From NCBI GenBank assembly GCA_052168235.1, contig JBQLZK010000018.1:85943-104738 (forward strand): DNA of 18,796 bases, in the 5' to 3' direction. Position numbers and translations under genes: made by a program. This DNA comes from Thainema sp. GTDB taxonomy: Bacteria > Cyanobacteriota > Cyanobacteriia > Phormidesmidales > Phormidesmidaceae. The notes beneath the pieces were generated by a model. The model had not been told where the DNA came from. It made no database searches and saw only the letters and a program-made list of their open reading frames with translations. Numbering within the stretch: position 1 is the first letter of the stretch; every line of letters starts with the position of its first letter. Positions 2,718-18,796 of this stretch are shown here, piece after piece.

Positions 2718-3377
2718 ATGAAGCGACTAGCAACCACAGCGGTTACCAAAAAAATCTTAGCCGGAATTTTAACGCTCGGCACCGTAGTTACAGTGTCAGC
2801 TTGCGCATCAGAGCAGGATACAGTCACGACTGCTCCTACAACTGAGGATCCTGCTGCAGTTGATGATGCAAATACAGCAGAAGAGCCAATGGCTAGCGAT
2901 ATGGAGACCGATGCCGCGGCCAACGGTTCGATTGTTGAAGTTGCATCCAGTGCAGGATCATTCAATACTTTAACGCAGGCTATTGAGGCTGCTGGGCTGA
3001 CTGAAACCCTCTCTCAAGATGGTTCTTCCTATACCGTGTTTGCCCCAACGGACGAAGCCTTCAATCAACTGCCGGAAGGAACGCTGGATCAACTGCTACT
3101 GCCAGAAAATCAGGAGCTACTCCGTCAGATTTTAACCTACCACGTTGTGCCGCAGGCAGTCACGTCCAGTGAAATCCAACCTGGCGAAGTTAGCACCGTT
3201 GAGGGTTCTCCAGTTAACCTCCAGGTTGATGGCAGCAGTGTCATGGTCAACGAAGCAATGGTAACTCAACCAGACATTGAAGCTAGCAATGGTGTAATTC
3301 ACGCCATTGATCAGGTCATTCTGCCACCACAGATTGCTGCTCAGTTAACGGGAGCAGGCGCAGGTAGCGAAGGATAA
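2718..3377 (+). CDS. Fasciclin (FAS1) domain lipoprotein
   Basis: FAS1 motifs YTVFAPTDEAF, ILTYHVVP and ASNGVIHAIDQVILP; signal peptide with lipobox VSAC; acidic linker. ATG 2718 follows AAGGA (ORF track start is 2685). Confidence 0.92.
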   Translation: MKRLATTAVTKKILAGILTLGTVVTVSACASEQDTVTTAPTTEDPAAVDDANTAEEPMASDMETDAAANGSIVEVASSAGSFNTLTQAIEAAGLTETLSQDGSSYTVFAPTDEAFNQLPEGTLDQLLLPENQELLRQILTYHVVPQAVTSSEIQPGEVSTVEGSPVNLQVDGSSVMVNEAMVTQPDIEASNGVIHAIDQVILPPQIAAQLTGAGAGSEG

Positions 3378-3743: not shown

Positions 3744-3789
3744 AAAAAAGCGAGGGGAATGCGTCTTTGAGACGCATTCCCCTCGCTTT
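3744..3789 (-). terminator. petBD intrinsic terminator / 3' stem-loop
   Basis: Perfect 20-bp inverted repeat (3747-3766 / 3770-3789) with a 3-nt loop, ending in T6 on the minus strand, 27 nt downstream of petD. Confidence 0.88.
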
Positions 3790-3816: not shown

Positions 3817-4299
3817 TTAGAACAAACCCAGGGTCAGAGACTCTCTGATGGGGAATGTTGCGCCAATTCCGAGCCACAGTGTTACCAACGTACCAAACAT
3901 GAATACGGTGGTCGCAACTGGACGACGGAATGGATTTTGGAACTTGTTGACATTCTCAATGAATGGTACAAGCATCAGACCTAGAGGAATTGCAGTTTGC
4001 AACGCAATTCCCAGCAGCTTGTTAGGAACAATCCGCAGAATTTGGAAAGCGGGATAGAGATACCACTCTGGCAAAATCTCTAGCGGTGTTGCAAACGGGT
4101 TAGCTGGCTCGCCCACCATTGCAGGATCAAGTACAGCTAAGGCTGTAACACAAGCAATCGTACCCAGAATAACGACTGGGAACACGTACAACAAATCGTT
4201 GGGCCAAGCTGGCTCACCGTAGTAGTTGTGACCCATACCACGCTTTAGCTTCTCGCGTAGTTTCGGATCAGCTAAATTCGGCTTTTTCAAAGTTGCCAT
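3817..4299 (-). CDS. petD: Cytochrome b6f subunit IV
   Basis: [27 protein letters not shown] and NPFRRP; 160 aa; downstream of petB. Confidence 0.99.
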
Positions 4300-5490: not shown

Positions 5491-6732
5491 ATGATTAGGA
5501 AACTGCTTCATACCGGACTTTTAATATTCCTTGTTGCGCTCTGTTCGTGGGGATGGGCAACGCCGTCAGCTTTGGCCTTTACAGATGAGCAAAAGCTAGT
5601 GTCTGAGGTCTGGCGGATTGTGAATCGGGCTTATTTAGACGAAACATTCAACGGTCAGAACTGGTGGTTTGTGCGCCAGCGGATGTTACGCAAGTCAATG
5701 CGCGATCGCGAAGAGGCTTATGGGGTGATTCAGGACATGCTGGCGATGCTGAATGACCCCTATACGCGTCTGCTCAAGCCCAAGCAGTACCGGACGCTGC
5801 AAACAAATACCTCGGGAGAACTCACTGGGGTTGGGTTGCAAATTGCCCAGGATGATGAGGGCTATTTGCGGGTGATTGCGCCGATTGAGGGGTCGCCCGC
5901 CGAGGATGCTGGGATTCAACCCCGCGATCGCATTACTCAAATCAATGGCTTTCCAACCCGCAACTTGACGTTAGATGAAGCGGCGGATCGGATGCGGGGG
6001 CAGGTTGGCACGATTGTGACGCTGACGGTGGAGCGAAACGAGCAGGCTCCGTTTGATGTCAATCTCAAGCGCGATCATATTGTGCTGAATCCGGTTTACG
6101 CTGATTTGCGATCGCAGTCGGACGGCAGCAAGATTGGCTACATTCGCCTGAATCAGTTCAACGGCAATGCGGCCTCGGAAATGGCCAGTGCGCTGTCTGA
6201 TTTGGAAAAACGAGGGGCAGAATCCTACATCTTGGACTTACGCAATAATCCAGGCGGGTTGCTCCAGGCGGGGGTTGAAATTGCTCAGCTTTGGCTGGAT
6301 GATGCGCCAATTGTGTACACCGTGAATCGTCAGGGCATGATGGGCAGTTTTCAGGCAGCTGGTCAGGCGGCAACCCATGCGCCGCTGGTTGTCCTGGTCA
6401 ACGGTGGCACCGCCAGCGCCAGTGAGATTCTGGCTGGAGCACTACAGGATAACGGGCGAGCGGAACTGGTTGGTGAAACGACATTTGGGAAAGGTCTAAT
6501 CCAGTCGCTGTTCGACCTTTCCGATGGGGCGGGTTTAGCGGTGACGATTGCCAAGTATGAAACACCTAGCCATCGCGATATCAATAAATTAGGCATCACG
6601 CCGGATCATGCTGTGTCGTCAGAGCTGATCAGTCGCGCTCAATTTGCCACACCGGACGATCCGCAGTATCAGGCCGCTGTAGACCTGTTAACGGAAAAAT
6701 CTCTCGTTGCTGCGGAGCCAGCGTCACGCTAA
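5491..6732 (+). CDS. ctpA: Carboxyl-terminal processing protease (S41A; D1-processing CtpA type)
   Basis: Signal peptide, PDZ region (GVGLQI), LDLRNNPGG, catalytic TASASE and TFGKG; divergent from petB as is common in cyanobacteria. ATG 5491 is preferred over TTG 5434. Confidence 0.9.
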   Translation: MIRKLLHTGLLIFLVALCSWGWATPSALAFTDEQKLVSEVWRIVNRAYLDETFNGQNWWFVRQRMLRKSMRDREEAYGVIQDMLAMLNDPYTRLLKPKQYRTLQTNTSGELTGVGLQIAQDDEGYLRVIAPIEGSPAEDAGIQPRDRITQINGFPTRNLTLDEAADRMRGQVGTIVTLTVERNEQAPFDVNLKRDHIVLNPVYADLRSQSDGSKIGYIRLNQFNGNAASEMASALSDLEKRGAESYILDLRNNPGGLLQAGVEIAQLWLDDAPIVYTVNRQGMMGSFQAAGQAATHAPLVVLVNGGTASASEILAGALQDNGRAELVGETTFGKGLIQSLFDLSDGAGLAVTIAKYETPSHRDINKLGITPDHAVSSELISRAQFATPDDPQYQAAVDLLTEKSLVAAEPASR

Positions 6733-7991
6733 TGAAACCCATCCAGAGCCGCACCTATCACGACCCGTTACATGGTGCGATCGCACTGGATGGTAGTGAC
6801 CCCACCGAAGCGCTAATTATTCAACTGATTGATACGCCTGCCTTTCAGCGACTGCGGCGCATTCGCCAGTTGGGGCCAGCCAGTTTTACCTTTCATGGAG
6901 CTGAAGCGTCACGGTTTACTCATTCTCTGGGAGTGATGGCCGTGGCGCGTCGTGCATTTGACGGCATTGTTGAACGCTATCCGTCTCTCAAACCCCATCG
7001 CGCTACCGTTCTCTGTGCGGCATTGCTGCATGACGTGGGGCACGGGCCGTTTAGTCACACGGCTGAAGATGTGTTTAGTACGGAACATGAACACTGGACA
7101 GCCCAGATTTTGCAGCATTCGCCGCCCGTGCGCCAGCTGCTCGACCAGTTTTCCCCTGGTTTATTAGAATCCATTCTCCAGGTTTACCAGCATCAGCATT
7201 CTGTGCCGCTGGTCTGGCAGCTGGTGTCCAGCCAGTTGGACTGCGATCGCTTGGACTATCTCATGCGCGATAGCTACTTCACCGGGGCTGCCTACGGTCA
7301 GCTTGATCTAGACCGCATCCTGATGGCGATGCGCTACGACCCGGTGAGCCAGCAACTGGCGGTTGCCCAGAAGGGACTCGCGGCGATTGAGCACTACCTG
7401 ATGGTACGGCACTTTATGTACGCCCAGGTCTATAGCCATCCCAAAAACATTGCAGCAACCTGGATGCTTTGCCAGTTATTTAATCGGGCGCGATCGCAAC
7501 TCCAGTCCGGCCAGTTAGACACCGACGAAACGATGCGGGCCTGGATGCAGCAGCCCCAGCAGTCGCTGAGCCTCAAACACTATTTAGCTGCCGATGACAT
7601 GGTGTTGCTCTACCATCTGCACCGCTGGCAGCAGCATGCCGATCCGGTCTTGTCGGATCTCTGTCGGCGCTATCAAGACCGAGATTTGTTAAAGGCCAAG
7701 GACATTACCCATCGCTCACTGGCGGATCAGACGGCACTGCTCCAGCAGGTTTACCGCGAACTAGAGCAGCGAGGCTGGTCGGCTAAGTACTACGCTGGAC
7801 TCCAGCAGTCTCTCAGTCGGGGCTACACGCTGTATCACCACGGGATTAAGGTGCAGACTCCGAGCGGGCTACAGGAGCTGAGTCTGCTGTCTAAGATTGT
7901 CCATACGCTGGCCCAACCGATTCATCGCACCTGGTTGATTTATCCGCGTGAGGTGGAGAGTAAATTGACGGGACTGTTGCGGGATTATTAG
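6732..7991 (+). CDS. HD-domain phosphohydrolase, SAMHD1/YwfO-like dNTP triphosphohydrolase family
   Basis: DPLHG, FQRLRRIRQLG, SRFTHSLG, LLHDVGHGPFSH, EHE and QLDCDRLDYLMRD; TAATG overlap with ctpA. Confidence 0.9.
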   Translation: MKPIQSRTYHDPLHGAIALDGSDPTEALIIQLIDTPAFQRLRRIRQLGPASFTFHGAEASRFTHSLGVMAVARRAFDGIVERYPSLKPHRATVLCAALLHDVGHGPFSHTAEDVFSTEHEHWTAQILQHSPPVRQLLDQFSPGLLESILQVYQHQHSVPLVWQLVSSQLDCDRLDYLMRDSYFTGAAYGQLDLDRILMAMRYDPVSQQLAVAQKGLAAIEHYLMVRHFMYAQVYSHPKNIAATWMLCQLFNRARSQLQSGQLDTDETMRAWMQQPQQSLSLKHYLAADDMVLLYHLHRWQQHADPVLSDLCRRYQDRDLLKAKDITHRSLADQTALLQQVYRELEQRGWSAKYYAGLQQSLSRGYTLYHHGIKVQTPSGLQELSLLSKIVHTLAQPIHRTWLIYPREVESKLTGLLRDY

Positions 7992-8011: not shown

Positions 8012-8704
8012 CTACAGTAAGGGTGTTTGGGTGCGGAGCTGCTGGAGGTTGAGTTGGGCAAGTTGGGTGTAGGCATCTGCGATCGCAGCTTCGCCGCGCA
8101 GGAATCCGGTATTGGCACCGGGACAAATCCACTGCAAGGTTTCAGACGAAAACTCGTTGAGAATCCGCTCAACCTGCTGAAGCTGGCGCGGCCAGTGAAA
8201 GGTTTTGGCGATGCGCAGGGGTTCTGGAGCACCTTTACGATTGGGCAGCAGATGCCGTCCGGTGAATAGAATGCCGCCGTAACGGTTATAAAAGACGCAG
8301 GCTGAACCGGGTGAATGTCCGGGTGTCCAAAAAACGCGGACGGTATCCGTCACCGGAAATTCTTGCTCAAAGCTTGTAACAGTCAATCCCGGCAGAAGGT
8401 AAGCCTCTTGCTCTTGCACCACAATTTCGCACTGGAAGGCTTGTTGCAGAGCCGCCACCTTGCCATGTCCGCCCCGATGGGTGAGAACCAGCCAGCGCAC
8501 TCCCCCCTGATTGTGCAAGAATTCCCATATCTGCTCATTCTCAGCCGGACAGTCAATCAAGACATTGCCAGTATTGCCTAAAATAAGATAGGCGGTTCCT
8601 CCCATCGTGTCGCGATTGGGTGGAAAAGAATAAACCAATTCAAAAATTGGGCGCGGCAGTTTTCCTTTAGCTGATGCGGAAGTTGAGGATGGGGTGACGG
8701 ACAC
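8012..8704 (-). CDS. Metallo-beta-lactamase-fold protein (cyanobacterial type, degenerate metal motif)
   Basis: FPPNRDTMGGTAY, NVLIDCP, LVLTHRGGH, WTPGHSPGS and LFTGRHL. Start uncertain: GTG 8704 chosen, ORF track gives 8791. Confidence 0.8.
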   Translation of the reverse strand: MSVTPSSTSASAKGKLPRPIFELVYSFPPNRDTMGGTAYLILGNTGNVLIDCPAENEQIWEFLHNQGGVRWLVLTHRGGHGKVAALQQAFQCEIVVQEQEAYLLPGLTVTSFEQEFPVTDTVRVFWTPGHSPGSACVFYNRYGGILFTGRHLLPNRKGAPEPLRIAKTFHWPRQLQQVERILNEFSSETLQWICPGANTGFLRGEAAIADAYTQLAQLNLQQLRTQTPLL

Positions 8705-9329
8705 AAGCGACCTTGATAACTCGTATGGAACATCCAGTTGAAAAACCCAATGTTTAGTGTGCAATGCGTAGATGACGCGCATGTTGCACACAGGTTAGGT
8801 TTCACAAGCGGATTCTGTATCAGTATACAGTCAGGTTTTGCCTCCAGGTTTGGCTCAGTTAATGTAGGTTGGATGTGATTTTGAATGAGTGCGGCATTAA
8901 TGCTAAAGCGAGGAGCAGCTAGTGTGACAACGTTAAGCAAAAAGCAAGCTAAGTGACGGATAACGAGAAAGTGCGCTGTTTTTGATTAAAATGTGAGCAT
9001 TTTGCAGTGACATCTAATTCATCGAACGCCTTATCTAAAATAAAGTCTTATCTAAATCTTCTATAAGTAGAACTTTTACAAGTAGAACGTAGCTATTCGG
9101 TGACTTATCCAAACTGTATTCAACAACACAACAGTCTATAGAACAGCTTATAGATTACGTCTGATTAGAAGACATACGTCAAAATAAAAGAGAAGCTGCC
9201 ACACTATCAGCCTGTATGAAGCCCAAAATTAATTTCATTTGTGCCAGTTTGTCCCCTAGCGTTTCGTTCGTCCAGCCCCATACGGGAGCATGTAGTTGCT
9301 ATTTTCCGAGAGTGCCTAAGGTTTAAGTC

Positions 9330-11370: not shown

Positions 11371-14300
11371 TCAAGCGAAAAGCGTATCCACTGCATCCGC
11401 GCTCAGCGGTTTAGAAAATAAATAGCCCTGTCCAAAGTGGCAACCCAGTTGCTTGAGCTGGGCAAACTGCTGCTTTGTTTCAATGCCTTCTGCGATCGCA
11501 TTGAGTCCTAACTGGTGACTGAGAGAGATGATGGTCTTGGTGATTTGCAGATGAAATGGGTCATGAATATCCTTGACAAACGACTTGTCAATCTTCAAGT
11601 TGTTCACAGGCATCCGGTGCAGATAGCTTAGTGAAGAGTAGCCTGTGCCAAAATCATCAACGCTAATTTGAATGCCCAGATTTTGCAGTTGCTTGAGCTT
11701 GTCAATTAGATCGAGTGAGCTTTCAACTAATAAACTTTCGGTTAGTTCCAGCGCGACATAGTTCGGTGGTAGACCTGTGCGCTCCAAAATATCTTGAATT
11801 TGCGGCACCACTGCGGGCATTTTGAGCTGCCGAACCGATACATTGATGCTGATTTTGAGAGTATGGGCGGCTTTGTGTCGGCGTCGCCAATTCATCATTT
11901 GCTGACAGGCCGCTTCCAGAATCCAGAGGCCCAATGGCACAATCAGTCCTGTATCCTCGGCGACGGGAATAAAATCGGAGGGTGAAATGAGACCATGCAG
12001 TGGATGTTGCCAGCGCAGCAGCGCCTCAAACCCCGTCAATTCCCCAGATTCAATCGCCACAATGGGCTGATAGTGCAGGAAAAACTCGCCGTTTTCCAGG
12101 GCTTTACGTAAATCTGTTTCCAAATGGAGCCGCTTGAGGACAGTCGTGTGCATGGAGGGCGTAAACACCATGTAGTGGTTCTTGCCGTTTGCTTTGGCTT
12201 GATACATGGCCAAGTCGGCATCGCGCAGCAAACTCTGAGGGTTGTGATACGAGTCCTGACCATACACAATGCCAATGCTGACGGTTGCGAACAGTTCATA
12301 ATCCTCAACCAGGATGGGCTGTTGAAAGACTTGCGAGATTTGCTCAGCCAGGATCAACGGCTGATTTTGGTTATCGATAAAGGTCGATAGAATGACAAAC
12401 TCATCGCCTCCCAGGCGAGCTAGAAAATCATTGGCGGACACTAGGCTTTGCAGCTTGCGGGCAATCATACACAGCAGCTGATCGCCAACGGGATGGCCCA
12501 AGCTGTCGTTGATCACCTTGAATTCATCAATGTCTAAAAAAAGAACCGCAAACGCTTGGTCGGGATGAGTGGGTGATTGGGCAAGGGTTTGTTCGAGCCG
12601 CTCCAGTAAAAAACTACGGTTGGGTAAGCCTGTTAATGAGTCGTGGCGAGCGTCATTCAGGAGTTGAGTTTGAAATTTGACCCGTTCCGTTACATCGCGC
12701 GCCGTCGTTTGATAGCCCACAACTTGCTGGTCTGCGGCCAGAATGGGTTTGACCAGCGTTTCGAGCCAAATGTAGTCACCATTTTGGTGGAGCATTCGAT
12801 GGTAGGTAACGGGGGCGGATTCCTCGCCGACCGTTGCCTGTTGAATCGCTTGCTGTAGTGTAGGCCAGTCATCTGCATGACAAAATTTTGTGGGTTGCTG
12901 ATTAATGAGCTCCTGTGGGTTATATCCCAGTAGGGTTTGACAAGACGGACTGACGTAGCTGTAGCTGTTGTCCATGCGATGCAGGCAAACCAAGTCGCGC
13001 ATGTTGTCGGCAACAATCCGATACAGTAATTCGCTCTGACGCAGTGCTGCTTGAGTGAGCTTGTGTTCTGCGATCTCCATTTGGGCTTGCTGGTAGAGGG
13101 CAGCCTGATGAACTGCGATCGCAACTTGAGTGGCCAACTGCTGGAGCAATTCGCTTTCCCACGTTTGCCACTGACGGGAATGGCGGCACTGGTGAACAAC
13201 CAGTAATCCCCACAAATTGTCTTGATGCAAAATTGGCACGACTAGCTTTGACTTCACCTGGATGTGCCGCAGCGTTTCCCGCAGGCATTCCGACATCTCA
13301 TCCTGCTCAACGTCGGTCACACAGCGCACTCGACCCTGGCGATACATCTCGTAACACTCTAGCGGAAACATATCGGGCGGTAGCGGCTGGGGCAGAATGG
13401 CGGTGCAGTCTGCTGCCACTGATTCGGTGATTATCTGGCCTGCGCCATCCGGATTGGTGCGATAGGTGACAACCCGATCGGCCTGGAGAAGTTGGCGCAC
13501 TTCGGCCACGGTTGTATCGAGGATTTCGGTGAGATCTAGCGACTGGCGAATTCGATGTGCGATCGCATTGACGATCTGTTCCCGCTCTTGCTGTTTGCGG
13601 CGGAATTCCTCAGTCTGCTTCCGCTCGGTGATATCAACGCCAATGCCCGTAATTTCAAACAGTTCACCCTGCTTATTGAAATGATTGATCGAACTCCAGG
13701 CAATCACCCGCTTTTCCCCTTGCCGAGTCGTGATCGTCATCTCGTAGTTCGTGACTTGCCCTTGTTCAGCAAAGTCCCGATACATTTGCTCAACCTGGCG
13801 ATAGTCATCACCGGGATACAAAATTTGCAGCCAGTTTTGGCCCAGCAGCTCGTCTGCTGTGTATCCAGTTATTTCATAGGTTGCCGGATTGGCAAATTTC
13901 GTAGTGCCGTCCGGCGCAATGCTCGCAATCAAAAGCGGTGCTGTGGTCACAATGTGATCTGTAAACTCCCGCGCCTCCGCTAACGCGGTCTGGATCTGCT
14001 TGGCCTCCGTAATATCATGGCGAATTGCCACATACTGAACTGGCTGTCCTTGGTCATCGACAAACGGCACAATTGTGATGTCAACCCAGTAGTAGCTGCC
14101 GTCCTTTGCTCGATTTTTGATCTCGTTGTGCCAGACTTTTCCACTAGAAATGGTTTGCCACATGTCCTGGAAAAAGGCTTTGGCATGATACCCAGAATTA
14201 ATGATGCGATGGGTTTGCCCGATCAGCTCTGCTCGGGAATACTGGGAAATTTCGCAGAATTTGTCGTTGACGTAGGTGATCCGTCCGGCTGCATCCGTAA

Positions 14301-15246
14301 TCGCGACGATAGAAGACTGATCCAGCGCAAACTTAATATTCGATGCTTCTTGCAGCGATCGCTGCAACCGCGCCTCTGTTTGCTTTTGCTGCGTCACATC
14401 GCGTGTGATCGCCAAATGCGCCCAGCGCCCTTCAGGCATTATCGGCAAAGGCGTCGCATGAGTTGACATAGATCGCCGATTTCCGCGACAGGTAATAATG
14501 TCGAACTCCAGCGTGCCCGATTCACCCTGACAAATCCGCTGATTCAATGCCTTAAACGCAGCTCGATCTTCCGGTGCGATTAAGCAATAAATTGATTCAC
14601 CAATCACCTCTTTGGCATCGGTTGCCTCAATTAACGCTAACCCAGCAGGATTCATATCTAGCAGAATGCCATTGGCATCAATAATTTTGAGGCACTCTGG
14701 CTGATTTTCAATAATGTTATGAAGGCGTTTTTCTTGCTGCGCTAGGATAGCCGCGCGCTTACGCAATTCCAACTGACTGACGATTTGACGACTGAGAATT
14801 TGTAGCGTTTCGATCTGTTCAGCCGTGACTGTCCGGGGTACATAGTCCATCACGCATAGGGTGCCAATCCGACAGCCATTGGGTGCAACCAGTGGAATCC
14901 CTGCGTAGAAACGAAATGGCAGGTTCTCTGCAACGAGTGACTGGGACGCAAATCGCGAATCAATTGCTAAATTTTCGACAATCAGTGGCTCATCCGAGCG
15001 AATGGCATGGTGGCAGCAGGTTGCTTCTCTGGGCATTTCCGAATGATTGAGCCCAACTTTTGCCTTGAACCACTGACGAGTTTGATCCGAGAGGCTGATC
15101 AGCGCAATTGGTGTTTGACAAAAGGTGGCGGCCAAACGGGTGAGATCATCAAATTCAGGTTCCGCACCAGAATCTAAAACGTCGTAGTCACGGAGTGTTT
15201 GTTGCCTTTCTTGTTCTTCAAGATCGTTTCGAAAGGACATTGGCAT
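11371..15246 (-). CDS. Multi-sensor c-di-GMP cyclase/phosphodiesterase: GAF-PAS-PAS-PAS-GAF(cyanobacteriochrome)-PAS-GGDEF-EAL
   Basis: GAF (RFYAGIPL, GTLCVMD); four PAS/PAC units ending in DVT/DIT; second GAF (ADRVVTY, LWGLLVVHQC); HDSLTGLPNR and ARLGGDEF; EALLRW, DDFGTGYSS and AEGIE. Confidence 0.95.
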   Translation of the reverse strand: MPMSFRNDLEEQERQQTLRDYDVLDSGAEPEFDDLTRLAATFCQTPIALISLSDQTRQWFKAKVGLNHSEMPREATCCHHAIRSDEPLIVENLAIDSRFASQSLVAENLPFRFYAGIPLVAPNGCRIGTLCVMDYVPRTVTAEQIETLQILSRQIVSQLELRKRAAILAQQEKRLHNIIENQPECLKIIDANGILLDMNPAGLALIEATDAKEVIGESIYCLIAPEDRAAFKALNQRICQGESGTLEFDIITCRGNRRSMSTHATPLPIMPEGRWAHLAITRDVTQQKQTEARLQRSLQEASNIKFALDQSSIVAITDAAGRITYVNDKFCEISQYSRAELIGQTHRIINSGYHAKAFFQDMWQTISSGKVWHNEIKNRAKDGSYYWVDITIVPFVDDQGQPVQYVAIRHDITEAKQIQTALAEAREFTDHIVTTAPLLIASIAPDGTTKFANPATYEITGYTADELLGQNWLQILYPGDDYRQVEQMYRDFAEQGQVTNYEMTITTRQGEKRVIAWSSINHFNKQGELFEITGIGVDITERKQTEEFRRKQQEREQIVNAIAHRIRQSLDLTEILDTTVAEVRQLLQADRVVTYRTNPDGAGQIITESVAADCTAILPQPLPPDMFPLECYEMYRQGRVRCVTDVEQDEMSECLRETLRHIQVKSKLVVPILHQDNLWGLLVVHQCRHSRQWQTWESELLQQLATQVAIAVHQAALYQQAQMEIAEHKLTQAALRQSELLYRIVADNMRDLVCLHRMDNSYSYVSPSCQTLLGYNPQELINQQPTKFCHADDWPTLQQAIQQATVGEESAPVTYHRMLHQNGDYIWLETLVKPILAADQQVVGYQTTARDVTERVKFQTQLLNDARHDSLTGLPNRSFLLERLEQTLAQSPTHPDQAFAVLFLDIDEFKVINDSLGHPVGDQLLCMIARKLQSLVSANDFLARLGGDEFVILSTFIDNQNQPLILAEQISQVFQQPILVEDYELFATVSIGIVYGQDSYHNPQSLLRDADLAMYQAKANGKNHYMVFTPSMHTTVLKRLHLETDLRKALENGEFFLHYQPIVAIESGELTGFEALLRWQHPLHGLISPSDFIPVAEDTGLIVPLGLWILEAACQQMMNWRRRHKAAHTLKISINVSVRQLKMPAVVPQIQDILERTGLPPNYVALELTESLLVESSLDLIDKLKQLQNLGIQISVDDFGTGYSSLSYLHRMPVNNLKIDKSFVKDIHDPFHLQITKTIISLSHQLGLNAIAEGIETKQQFAQLKQLGCHFGQGYLFSKPLSADAVDTLFA

Positions 15247-17362: not shown

Positions 17363-17412
17363 AGCGAAACTAGACCCTACAACAGAGTCTAGGAATATAC
17401 CCTGTTGTTAAT

Positions 17413-18096
17413 CTAAAATATTTGCTTTTTCAAATTTATTAGAGCATTTTCGGCAGCCTGTTTTTCCGCTTCTTTCTTATTTCGGCCTTTACCTTCACCA
17501 CAAAGTTTTTCATTTACGTAAACCTTAGCCGTGAATTCTGGTTCATGATCTGTACCACCTGTTTTTTCCGTTACATATTTAGGTGGAGAAGTTGCGCCAT
17601 TAGCTTGAGCAAGTTCCTGAAATTTGTTTTTAGAGTCTACGCTTGAACGTACTATAACAACGTTTTTAGGAACGGAATTGAATAATTCCTCTATAAGTGG
17701 ACGAAGCACTTCAATATTTTTATCGTGATCTAAATAATAGGCACCTACAACAGCTTCAAAGGTACAACTTAATAAGTTGGGATTGTGATAACCACCTTCT
17801 TTAATTGCACCCTGTCCTAGGCGCATTCTAAAATCTAGTCCAACTTCAGTTGCAAATCGAGCCAGCTGTTTTTCATCAACAAGAGCTGATCTCCGGCGAG
17901 TCATTTCATCTTCTTCCATCTCCGGATAAATTTTGTATAAATACTCACCGCTAATGAAATTCAAAATAGCATCGCCAAGAAACTCTAATCGTTCATTATG
18001 ACCTGCTTCTTCAGGATTTTCATTAACATAGGAGCGATGAGTCAATGCATGGCGCAATAGCTTCTCATCATTAAATTTCAATAGTTTGTGCATCAC
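17413..18096 (-). CDS. rnc: Ribonuclease III (probable accessory paralog) with dsRBD
   Basis: ALTHRSY, signature NERLEFLGDAIL, TFEAVVGA, and C-terminal dsRBD (KNKFQE...GKGRNKKEAEKQAA). Start at GTG 18096 or ATG 18093. Confidence 0.93.
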   Translation of the reverse strand: MMHKLLKFNDEKLLRHALTHRSYVNENPEEAGHNERLEFLGDAILNFISGEYLYKIYPEMEEDEMTRRRSALVDEKQLARFATEVGLDFRMRLGQGAIKEGGYHNPNLLSCTFEAVVGAYYLDHDKNIEVLRPLIEELFNSVPKNVVIVRSSVDSKNKFQELAQANGATSPPKYVTEKTGGTDHEPEFTAKVYVNEKLCGEGKGRNKKEAEKQAAENALINLKKQIF

Positions 18097-18196: not shown

Positions 18197-18433
18197 TTAA
18201 TTGCTAATTGCTTTTGATTTTTTAGGAGGATATAGACTATCACCTCTAGATCTATTGCACTCTAGGCAGGAAAGACGGAGATTTTCTAAAGAGTTCGATC
18301 CACCTTTACTGCGAGGTACAAGATGATCCAGTGTCAATTTTTTGAGCGGTAAATGTATCTCACACCACCAGCAAGACAGCCCATATATACGAGCAAGATG
18401 CTGCTTTTTACCTTGTCTCCGCTTCGGATTCAT
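18197..18433 (-). CDS. Small HNH endonuclease (78 aa, zinc-binding McrA/HNH type)
   Basis: CWWC, TLDHLVPRSKGGSNSLENLRLSCLECNRSRG; ATG 18433 (ORF track TTG 18448). Confidence 0.9.
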   Translation of the reverse strand: MNPKRRQGKKQHLARIYGLSCWWCEIHLPLKKLTLDHLVPRSKGGSNSLENLRLSCLECNRSRGDSLYPPKKSKAISN

Positions 18434-18487
18434 ATTTCGCCATTCCAATGTTTAAGTGAACTAGCATCGGAATATCAATAAGCATGC

Positions 18488-18511
18488 AAAAAATGCGCTC
18501 CTTGAGCAACA
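18488..18511 (-). terminator. Putative weak intrinsic terminator/attenuator upstream of HNH
   Basis: Minus-strand UGU(U)GCUC-AAG-GAGCGCA followed by UUUUUU. Confidence 0.4.
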
Positions 18512-18524
18512 AATTATTTCTTGC

Positions 18525-18702
18525 ACTTAAAGTAAACGTCTCAAGCGCACTACCTCCAAGCCTCAAACCAGCGCACATCCAAGGTGCTGAGCCAGCCATT
18601 CATTTGAGAAATTTCTCTTGCTTAAACCAATGCCAGATCAACACACTGGACATGCATTAGTCTGAGGCGCAGAGGTAGTACCCATGAGACGAACACCTAA
18701 GC
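18525..18702 (-). ncRNA. Unannotated long rod-like RNA hairpin (~75-nt arms, 28-nt loop region)
   Basis: Arms 18702-18629 and 18600-18525 pair almost continuously on the minus strand with ~14 G-U pairs. Examples: CGUCUCA/UGAGACG, GUACUACCUCU/GGAGGUAGUGC, GCCUCAGACUA/UGGUUUGAGGC and UGCAUGUCCA/UGGAUGUGCG. Confidence 0.75.
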
Positions 18703-18796
18703 TTTAGATATTCGTCTACATGATTCCATCAAAGCATATGCATTGGTTCTTCCGGGTTTAAGGTGAATTTCGTATACTAGGCGACAACCAGTAGAC

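Follow-up and report, generated by a model that had tools for sequence, protein, structure and literature searches.

A long conserved hairpin in the putative leader of a cyanobacterial HNH-rnc operon

The HNH-rnc operon and its upstream hairpin

We examined a stretch of 18,796 nucleotides (nt) from Thainema sp. (GenBank assembly GCA_052168235.1, contig JBQLZK010000018.1, positions 85,943 to 104,738 of the forward strand), referred to below as the window, near one end of which a long rod hairpin (P1; 18525..18702, minus strand) lies upstream of two genes on the same strand. The first gene of this operon encodes a small HNH nuclease of 78 amino acids (aa) (18197..18433, minus strand; Pfam HNH PF01844, E 1e-11). 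The second, separated from it by approximately 100 nt, is rnc (17413..18096, minus strand), encoding an RNase III with both the catalytic domain and the double-stranded RNA-binding domain (dsRBD) (Pfam PF14622, PF00636 and dsrm). Taken together with its relatives, the sequence indicates that the mRNA of this cyanobacterial operon begins with a conserved and structured 5' leader of about 290 nt, with P1 at its core. The sequence-only reading that preceded our analysis had described the hairpin itself accurately, while its membership in the larger conserved leader had been missed.

The rnc gene was identified as an equivalog of NCBIfam TIGR02191 (228.5 bits against a cut-off of 166), with its likely start at the ATG at 18093, and a consensus scan placed a terminator-like stem with a T-run immediately after it (17370..17392, minus strand). 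The HNH protein is a member of a family conserved in cyanobacteria and represented by 23 database proteins with 26 invariant columns. Its nearest NCBIfam models were the HNH domains of IscB (E 2.4e-9) and Cas9d (E 6.1e-8), with scores far under the model cut-offs (36.8 bits versus 175 for IscB). A complex prediction for the HNH protein with an RNase III dimer, run without controls, gave a score of 0.00 against a mark of 0.32, which speaks neither for nor against binding.

Folding and strand asymmetry of the hairpin

Folded as RNA, the minus strand of 18525-18702 formed a single rod of -96.2 kcal/mol (z = -12.42), while its shuffles averaged -51.5 kcal/mol (standard deviation 3.6) and none of 200 folded as stably. 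The plus strand reached -57.4 kcal/mol (z = -5.57). This folding of both strands against shuffles upheld the position and strand previously assigned to the hairpin, and all helices listed at that stage, including the apical GAGA/UCUC mini-stem, were present in the minimum free energy (MFE) structure. The 74 pairs of this structure comprise 29 G-C or C-G, 29 A-U or U-A and 16 G.U pairs. To count the asymmetry of the arms in a way that is neutral between the strands, we aligned the 5' arm to the reverse complement of the 3' arm and obtained 56 Watson-Crick columns, 15 G.U-type, 2 A.C-type, 10 transversion mismatches and 8 gap columns; an earlier hand count of about 14 G-U to about one A-C pair was therefore essentially right. 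A covariance model gave the window hairpin 163.5 bits in the sense direction versus 66.8 bits antisense. An open reading frame of 63 aa (18408-18599), which overlaps the 3' arm of P1 and has no Pfam match, was treated as mechanical.

Occurrence of the hairpin in related loci

A scan of one genome per species with the HNH protein alignment yielded 74 loci (L numbers below). The survey therefore covers loci with an HNH relative, and it includes a doubtful match in Bdellovibrionaceae (L073). An rnc-like sequence was observed downstream of HNH on the same strand in 71 of the 74 loci and was not found in L041, L061 and the doubtful L073. Sliding folds over the 700 nt upstream of HNH revealed a 190-nt segment at or below -70 kcal/mol in 56 of the 74 loci, and 55 of these 56 segments ended 60-270 nt before the HNH start codon. 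The hairpin itself was located 40-260 nt upstream of HNH, with carriers among Leptolyngbya-like, Chamaesiphon, Phormidesmis, Scytonema, Rivularia, Nostoc and Microcoleus genomes.

A strict test for rods (unbranched, at least 50 pairs, ending no more than 350 nt from HNH) was passed by 54 of the 74 loci. The element was also present in four loci outside this test, namely L013 and L026, which have a branched apex, L049, in which the unbranched part of the stem has only about 41 pairs, and L071, in which the true leader hairpin was masked by a neighbouring hairpin. Shorter rods were observed in L027, L028 and L033 (115 nt), L066 (73 nt) and L041 (70 nt). No comparable hairpin was found in ten loci, where the best 190-nt segment was -66 kcal/mol or weaker (L012, L035, L040, L045, L055, L063, L067, L070, L072 and L073). 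L022 is doubtful, with a best segment of -68.2 kcal/mol at 241 nt, a 145-nt bracket and a branched fold; its rnc match is cut by the contig end.

The neighbouring structure in L071 (183-448) is a separate element of 266 nt located approximately 130 nt upstream of the true leader hairpin. It was equally stable on both strands (-114.7 and -110.6 kcal/mol), and this symmetry suggests a palindrome or repeat at the DNA level.

Sequence classes and copy number

Class 1 was defined by a profile of the window and the sequences closest to it, and contains 34 loci, the window and one extra copy in L065, for a total of 36 sequences. In the 34 loci and the window the profile matched on the sense strand just upstream of HNH. 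The covariance model built on these 36 sequences (R1) scored them at 137-215 bits in the sense direction versus 67-118 bits antisense. Weaker sense matches of 19-56 bits were observed at the expected place in L041, L061, L013, L048, L015, L026, L017, L025 and L066, with L026 being the case in which the antisense match exceeded the sense match (41.1 versus 34.7 bits).

The hairpins of Nostoc and Microcoleus occupy the same position with an entirely different interior sequence, and most of them keep the base of the stem. In the window this base is bracketed by GUCUCA (18690-18685) and UGAGAC (18543-18538) on the minus strand. The same bracket, with its halves 40-300 nt apart and within 600 nt upstream of HNH, was observed in 55 of the 74 loci, at a spacing that is nearly constant within each class (approximately 154 nt in class 1, 186 nt in the Nostoc class and 160 nt in Microcoleus). 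Outside class 1, the lineages thus retain only the rod shape and, for the most part, the GUCUCA/UGAGAC base.

Searches with nhmmer and R1 across the window and the 74 loci (810,052 bases) found one hairpin copy per locus. The sole convincing extra copy was the duplicate in L065, which is tied to an RNase III-family gene, and the 298-nt leader had no match in the plasmid or phage collections. Within the sequence searched, these counts bear out the earlier expectation that the hairpin is not a multi-copy miniature inverted-repeat transposable element (MITE). Cyanobacteria do carry such elements, Nezha being an example, and like P1 these MITEs and palindromic repeats are long intergenic inverted repeats that fold on either strand. 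P1 differs in being single-copy at a fixed syntenic site, in its strand-asymmetric wobble pairs and in its compensatory changes. On the evidence of these 810 kb, we rejected a MITE or other dispersed repeat, of which many copies and symmetrically decaying arms would be expected.

Near-perfect apical stems were observed in L049 (5713-5801) and L066 (5675-5747), with 35 and 27 Watson-Crick pairs, respectively, and no transversion mismatches. The sequences of these stems are unrelated to those of close relatives, which suggests that events forming new palindromes renew the hairpin at its apex.

Compensatory change and selection on the RNA

Of the 54 pairs in the consensus fold of the 36-sequence alignment, 28 had changed in a compensatory manner. 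Within the long stem alone (48 pairs), 95.5% of 1728 cells were standard-paired, and 28 of the 48 pairs, amounting to 111 cells, had changed on both sides. None of 500 column shuffles reached any of five measures of pairing and covariation, a figure that is not to be read as a probability given the kinship of the sequences; more weight belongs to the slid controls and to the independent pair types. When the partner was slid by 1-3 columns, pairing fell to 27-42% and the compensated pairs to 8-13. The independent Nostoc class (10 sequences) showed compensatory change in 19 of 72 pairs. Homologs of the hairpin thus carry compensatory changes in both class 1 and the Nostoc class, as the sequence-only reading had anticipated.

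The strands also differed consistently. The sense strand was the more stable in all 54 rod-bearing loci, by a mean of 17.6 kcal/mol, and G.U-type columns outnumbered A.C-type columns in 52 of the 54 and equalled them in two, for totals of 540 and 187. By class the counts were 352 to 93 (33 class-1 loci), 77 to 40 (8 Nostoc-class loci) and 111 to 54 (13 others). Some wobble pairs are fixed, with columns 85/138 being G.U in 34 of the 36 sequences. Together with the conservation of the hairpin upstream of HNH-rnc and the promoter described below, the compensatory changes and the strand bias sustain the earlier proposal that it is the RNA which is under selection, read in the direction of HNH and rnc. 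Whatever its mechanism, we consider the element very likely to be a functional sense-strand RNA structure of the leader.

The same data bear on whether the hairpin is instead a feature of the DNA with no RNA function. It could then be a palindrome in decay, a MITE, or a site that the HNH nuclease targets as a cruciform or in homing. A long inverted repeat does adjoin a nuclease gene here, the near-perfect arms in L049 and L066 are what palindrome renewal would give, and the antisense strand beats its shuffles as any inverted repeat would. We nevertheless find this barely credible, given the roughly threefold preponderance of G.U over A.C across the 54 loci (15 to 2 in the window), the G.U pairs conserved at fixed positions, the single copy per locus in the 810 kb searched with no plasmid or phage match, and the constant location, with a conserved promoter on one side and the start of the gene on the other.

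Architecture of the leader

A conserved element upstream of the class-1 hairpin has the sequence of a sigma-70-type promoter. A TTGAC -35 box was present in 34 of the 36 sequences, situated 42-44 nt before the motif GAATATC in 27 members; for L018, L023 and L069 the script picked a box closer to the motif, although the alignment shows one at this same distance as well. The TTGAC box is followed after 17 nt by a hexamer resembling a -10 element, often with TG in front of it. In the window, an extended -10 element is predicted at 18728..18736 on the minus strand (TG at 18736-18735, TTTGAT at 18733-18728), in alignment with 35 relatives. Since the window keeps this TGC+TTTGAT, we infer a transcription start near 18721, approximately 20 nt upstream of the hairpin. 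The window itself ends 94 nt upstream of the hairpin.

The leader motif GAATATC (18707..18713, minus strand), just 5' of the hairpin, is near-invariant across the 36 sequences, with three of its seven positions invariant and the other four nearly so. Following P1 is a short hairpin, P2 (18486..18524, minus strand; core UGCUCAAGGAGCG at 18508-18496), which appeared terminator-like in our scan. In the window the core of P2 is extended by an A-rich/U-rich stem and then a U-run. Related leaders have a predicted hairpin of variable sequence at this position, with the U-run present in some loci only and missing in most relatives. P1 itself was rejected as an intrinsic terminator, there being no U-run after the long hairpin. 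L074 carries an insertion of approximately 110 nt between P2 and GATATTC (about 5830-5950), with an inverted repeat of its own and a T-run, in a leader that is otherwise typical; the insertion is possibly a small mobile element.

Leader alignments revealed a second conserved heptamer, GAUAUUC (18470..18476, minus strand), the exact complement of the leader GAAUAUC. The two heptamers flank the long hairpin and P2 at a distance of approximately 240 nt. Their long-range pairing was part of the MFE structure in 15 of 33 leaders, and a local alternative was part of it in 10 of 33; GAATATC can also pair locally with GATGTTC. Within the Chamaesiphon group, read by eye, the GAUAUUC element varies only by transitions that keep the pairing with the leader. 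The heptamers may form a long-range helix, the local alternative or a protein site, and the predicted folds do not decide among these. Together with the invariant base of the stem, the complementary heptamers suggest an added sequence-specific step, such as a measured cleavage site or a bound protein.

The last hairpin of the leader, P3 (18437..18478, minus strand), is predicted in the window and in most relatives, and in it UUCC pairs with the Shine-Dalgarno GGAA of HNH (18446-18443). Across 25 leaders the mean unpaired probability of the HNH Shine-Dalgarno was 0.23, such that it is predicted to be mostly paired. Nostocales loci in which most of the long hairpin is gone still have the P3 motif (UUCCGAUG...GGAA), and L040 and L045 kept P3 and the 3' base of the stem. 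We also considered a switch in which GAUAUUC would pair with GAAUAUC until an RNase III cut, after which UUCC would become available to cover the Shine-Dalgarno. In partition-function folding, the 3' fragment and the complete leader had the same mean unpaired probability, with a lower value in the fragment for only 13 of the 25 usable leaders (of 33), and the switch was not supported.

Association with RNase III genes

Several loci depart from the typical arrangement. In the Rivularia locus L065, the promoter, the hairpin, P2 and GAUAUUCC occur a second time (3125-3320), in front of the gene for a 207-aa protein consisting of the RNase III catalytic domain only (PF14622, 6e-17), with no dsRBD and with no HNH gene between the hairpin and the RNase III-domain gene. 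In Prochloron (L035, 6001-6501), HNH is fused directly to a dsRBD in a 166-aa protein (Pfam HNH and dsrm) that lacks the RNase III catalytic domain found between the two in other genomes, and this locus has no long hairpin. L067 (6205-6492) showed the same pattern by tblastn, the Pfam check having been made on L035. L041 has no rnc, and its hairpin has collapsed to a bracket of 41 nt with an R1 match of 55.7 bits (5832-5914).

These loci help to weigh a possibility that we hold to be minor, though one to be taken seriously, in which the leader works without RNase III and its duplex binds HNH or another double-stranded RNA-binding protein, or stabilises or folds the mRNA so as to control translation of HNH. 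Such a role would accord with the placement of the hairpin directly before HNH in every locus except one, with L061, which has hairpin and HNH and no rnc, and with the HNH Shine-Dalgarno being predicted as paired in most leaders. The base of the stem and the flanking motifs are, moreover, conserved far beyond the needs of pairing, and the Prochloron fusion hints that HNH may work on or beside duplex RNA. It accords poorly with the L065 duplicate, which drives an RNase III-domain gene and no HNH, and with the loss of the hairpin in L035 and L067, where the catalytic domain was lost and HNH was kept. A duplex of 70-90 base pairs (bp) also far exceeds what a protein site or a 5' stabiliser would need, and the replacement of interiors between lineages with the rod shape kept fits a need for any long duplex.

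In Microcoleus, the gene downstream of HNH encodes a HEPN(Swt1-like)-RNase III-dsRBD fusion, and behind it lies a second, plain rnc. We observed this arrangement in L030 (6343-7545 and 7589-8281) and also in L036, L042, L043 and L052, while Okeania L066 has HEPN as a separate gene (6430-7071 and 8070-8768). The HEPN-RNase III-dsRBD fusion has already been described, with no mention, in the accessible part of that description, of its place behind a hairpin-HNH leader (PMC3710099).

Proposed mechanism

On balance we lean towards P1 being a cis-acting substrate of the RNase III encoded two genes downstream, which would provide feedback control. Autoregulation of RNase III through a cut in its own 5' untranslated structure is established in E. 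coli, S. aureus and S. coelicolor, according to the accessible portions of the sources (PMC5829567; bioRxiv 10.1101/2022.06.06.494920). In the model we propose, transcription would begin at the sigma-70-type promoter about 20 nt upstream of the hairpin, and the leader would fold as the 74-pair imperfect duplex P1, the short variable P2, and P3, which would hide the HNH ribosome-binding site. When free RNase III is abundant it would cut its own leader and thereby change the fate of the message; with the enzyme engaged on other double-stranded RNA, the leader would be left intact. The cut could destabilise the message, as in E. coli, or activate it, with the direction of the effect on expression a presumed part of the model. 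A feedback substrate would explain the need for a long duplex whose interior can be replaced wholesale, the tolerance of wobble pairs as against A.C oppositions, and the hairpin accompanying genes with the RNase III catalytic domain. The earlier suggestion that the dimensions of the hairpin fit an RNase III substrate accordingly stands as a candidate, with gene context as its support.

A number of observations weigh against a feedback substrate of this kind. L061 retains HNH and a hairpin of 182 nt although a search at E up to 10 detected no rnc within 6 kb, and conversely full-length rnc occurs without the long hairpin in L012, L040, L045, L055, L063, L070 and L072. The near-constant placement of the hairpin directly 5' of HNH means that control of HNH and control of rnc are not cleanly separable. 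Part of the G.U excess could reflect a transcription-linked C-to-T bias instead of selection, although such a bias cannot produce double changes and so leaves the compensatory changes unexplained. With respect to the promoter, the window has no TTGAC -35 box, the sequence being degenerate there, and a generic promoter scan of the window did not flag the -10 site. The data show the structure of the hairpin, how it is conserved, its strand and position and its link to RNase III genes, whereas cleavage, the key step, is one that we infer. Finally, RNase III autoregulation was sought and not observed in Synechococcus PCC 7002, a strain not established as a carrier of the leader, as reported in the accessible part of the source (PMC5829567).

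The accessible text of a 2022 review of cyanobacterial RNA decay mentions no RNase III feedback of this kind (PMC10989914). Should feedback by RNase III hold, the leader offers a conserved and easily recognised candidate for such control in cyanobacteria, and the hairpin a natural substrate for defining recognition by cyanobacterial RNase III. The hairpin would rank among the longest conserved single hairpins in bacterial leaders. Our survey also draws attention to an unexplained and very tight partnership between the 78-aa HNH nuclease and the rnc-like sequence.

Comparison with known systems

The closest parallel to the proposed mechanism is rncO of the E. coli/Salmonella rnc-era-recO operon, likewise a structured element in the 5' leader of an RNase III operon. 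P1 lies in such a leader, between the promoter-like element and HNH, with the start predicted. The two share a double-stranded region long enough for RNase III and the logic of negative feedback, with cleavage in the present case putative. The rncO duplex is several times shorter than P1. The two differ further in that the P1 leader has no sequence or structure homology to rncO and no Rfam match, its first gene is a small HNH nuclease and not rnc, and it has two further conserved hairpins, one of which is predicted to hide a ribosome-binding site. Similar self-cleavage has been reported for S. aureus rnc and S. coelicolor absB in the accessible parts of the same two sources (PMC5829567; bioRxiv 10.1101/2022.06.06.494920). 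In our assessment the hairpin leader constitutes a new RNA family. It varies a known regulatory principle in a new way and would work like rncO without being homologous to it.

No Rfam match at the gathering threshold was found anywhere in the window, and a search of 18200-18796 at E up to 10 returned only microRNA (miRNA) and small nucleolar RNA look-alikes. We likewise found no description of the hairpin or of the HNH-rnc operon in cyanobacteria in the literature, subscription journals and supplements aside, in agreement with the initial impression that the element belongs to no known family. The look-alikes included weak matches to plant miRNA precursors (MIR7724 at 29.6 bits against a gathering threshold of 100; MIR860 at 18.1 against 89), which we rejected as a resemblance of shape, the scores being far under these thresholds. 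The label "pre-miRNA-like", given to the hairpin at the outset, thus holds as a description of shape and fails as a family assignment. Eukaryotic miRNA precursors are, like P1, rod-like imperfect hairpins of similar length and substrates of RNase III-family enzymes. P1 differs in its bacterial host and in having no conserved mature sequence across lineages.

A precursor role in the bacterial setting, with RNase III or the HEPN-RNase III fusion dicing the hairpin into trans-acting small RNAs and the mRNA serving as carrier, strikes us as unlikely. The rod shape with its regular small mismatches and weak match to miRNA-precursor models would suit such a role, as would the strong conservation of both arms within class 1, and P2 with its U-run could end a short transcript in some loci. 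Most loci lack that U-run, though, and the interior is unconserved between lineages, such that there is no conserved guide sequence. No Argonaute-like partner is encoded beside the hairpin, and a short-word blastn search of the hairpin against the window for trans targets returned only chance matches of 8-15 nt.

HEARO, the omega RNA of IscB, is a structured RNA associated with HNH, and the P1 leader resembles it in lying directly upstream of a gene with an IscB-like HNH domain. We rejected this assignment. An IscB system comprises a protein of approximately 400 aa with RuvC and HNH together with an RNA family match, whereas the 78-aa HNH has neither RuvC nor bridge helix and scored far under the IscB cut-off, and no Rfam family matched, HEARO among them if the release used includes it.

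More far-reaching, and in our estimation highly improbable, is the idea that the hairpin, the Cas9/IscB-like HNH and RNase III, HEPN-fused in some lineages, make up one functional module and not just a self-regulated housekeeping operon. In one possible version, RNase III would dice the hairpin into small duplex RNAs used in trans. In another, cleavage of the leader would license or silence a potentially toxic HNH nuclease, and the module would then act as a sensor of double-stranded RNA load (phage, antisense RNA) coupled to a DNA nuclease. Were there such a module, the Prochloron HNH-dsRBD fusion would be its streamlined form.

Other features of the window

The window is cyanobacterial in character: petB and petD are encoded in it, and the octamer GCGATCGC occurs 21 times. 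Shortly beyond the 3' end of petD (3817-4299, minus strand) lies a perfect inverted repeat of 20 bp with a spacer of 3 nt (3747-3789), which probably serves as the petBD terminator. Two further minus-strand genes encode a NACHT/AAA-type NTPase that runs off the window start (1-1284) and a 1291-aa PAS/GAF/GGDEF/EAL signalling protein (11371-15246), both of which are ordinary for filamentous cyanobacteria.

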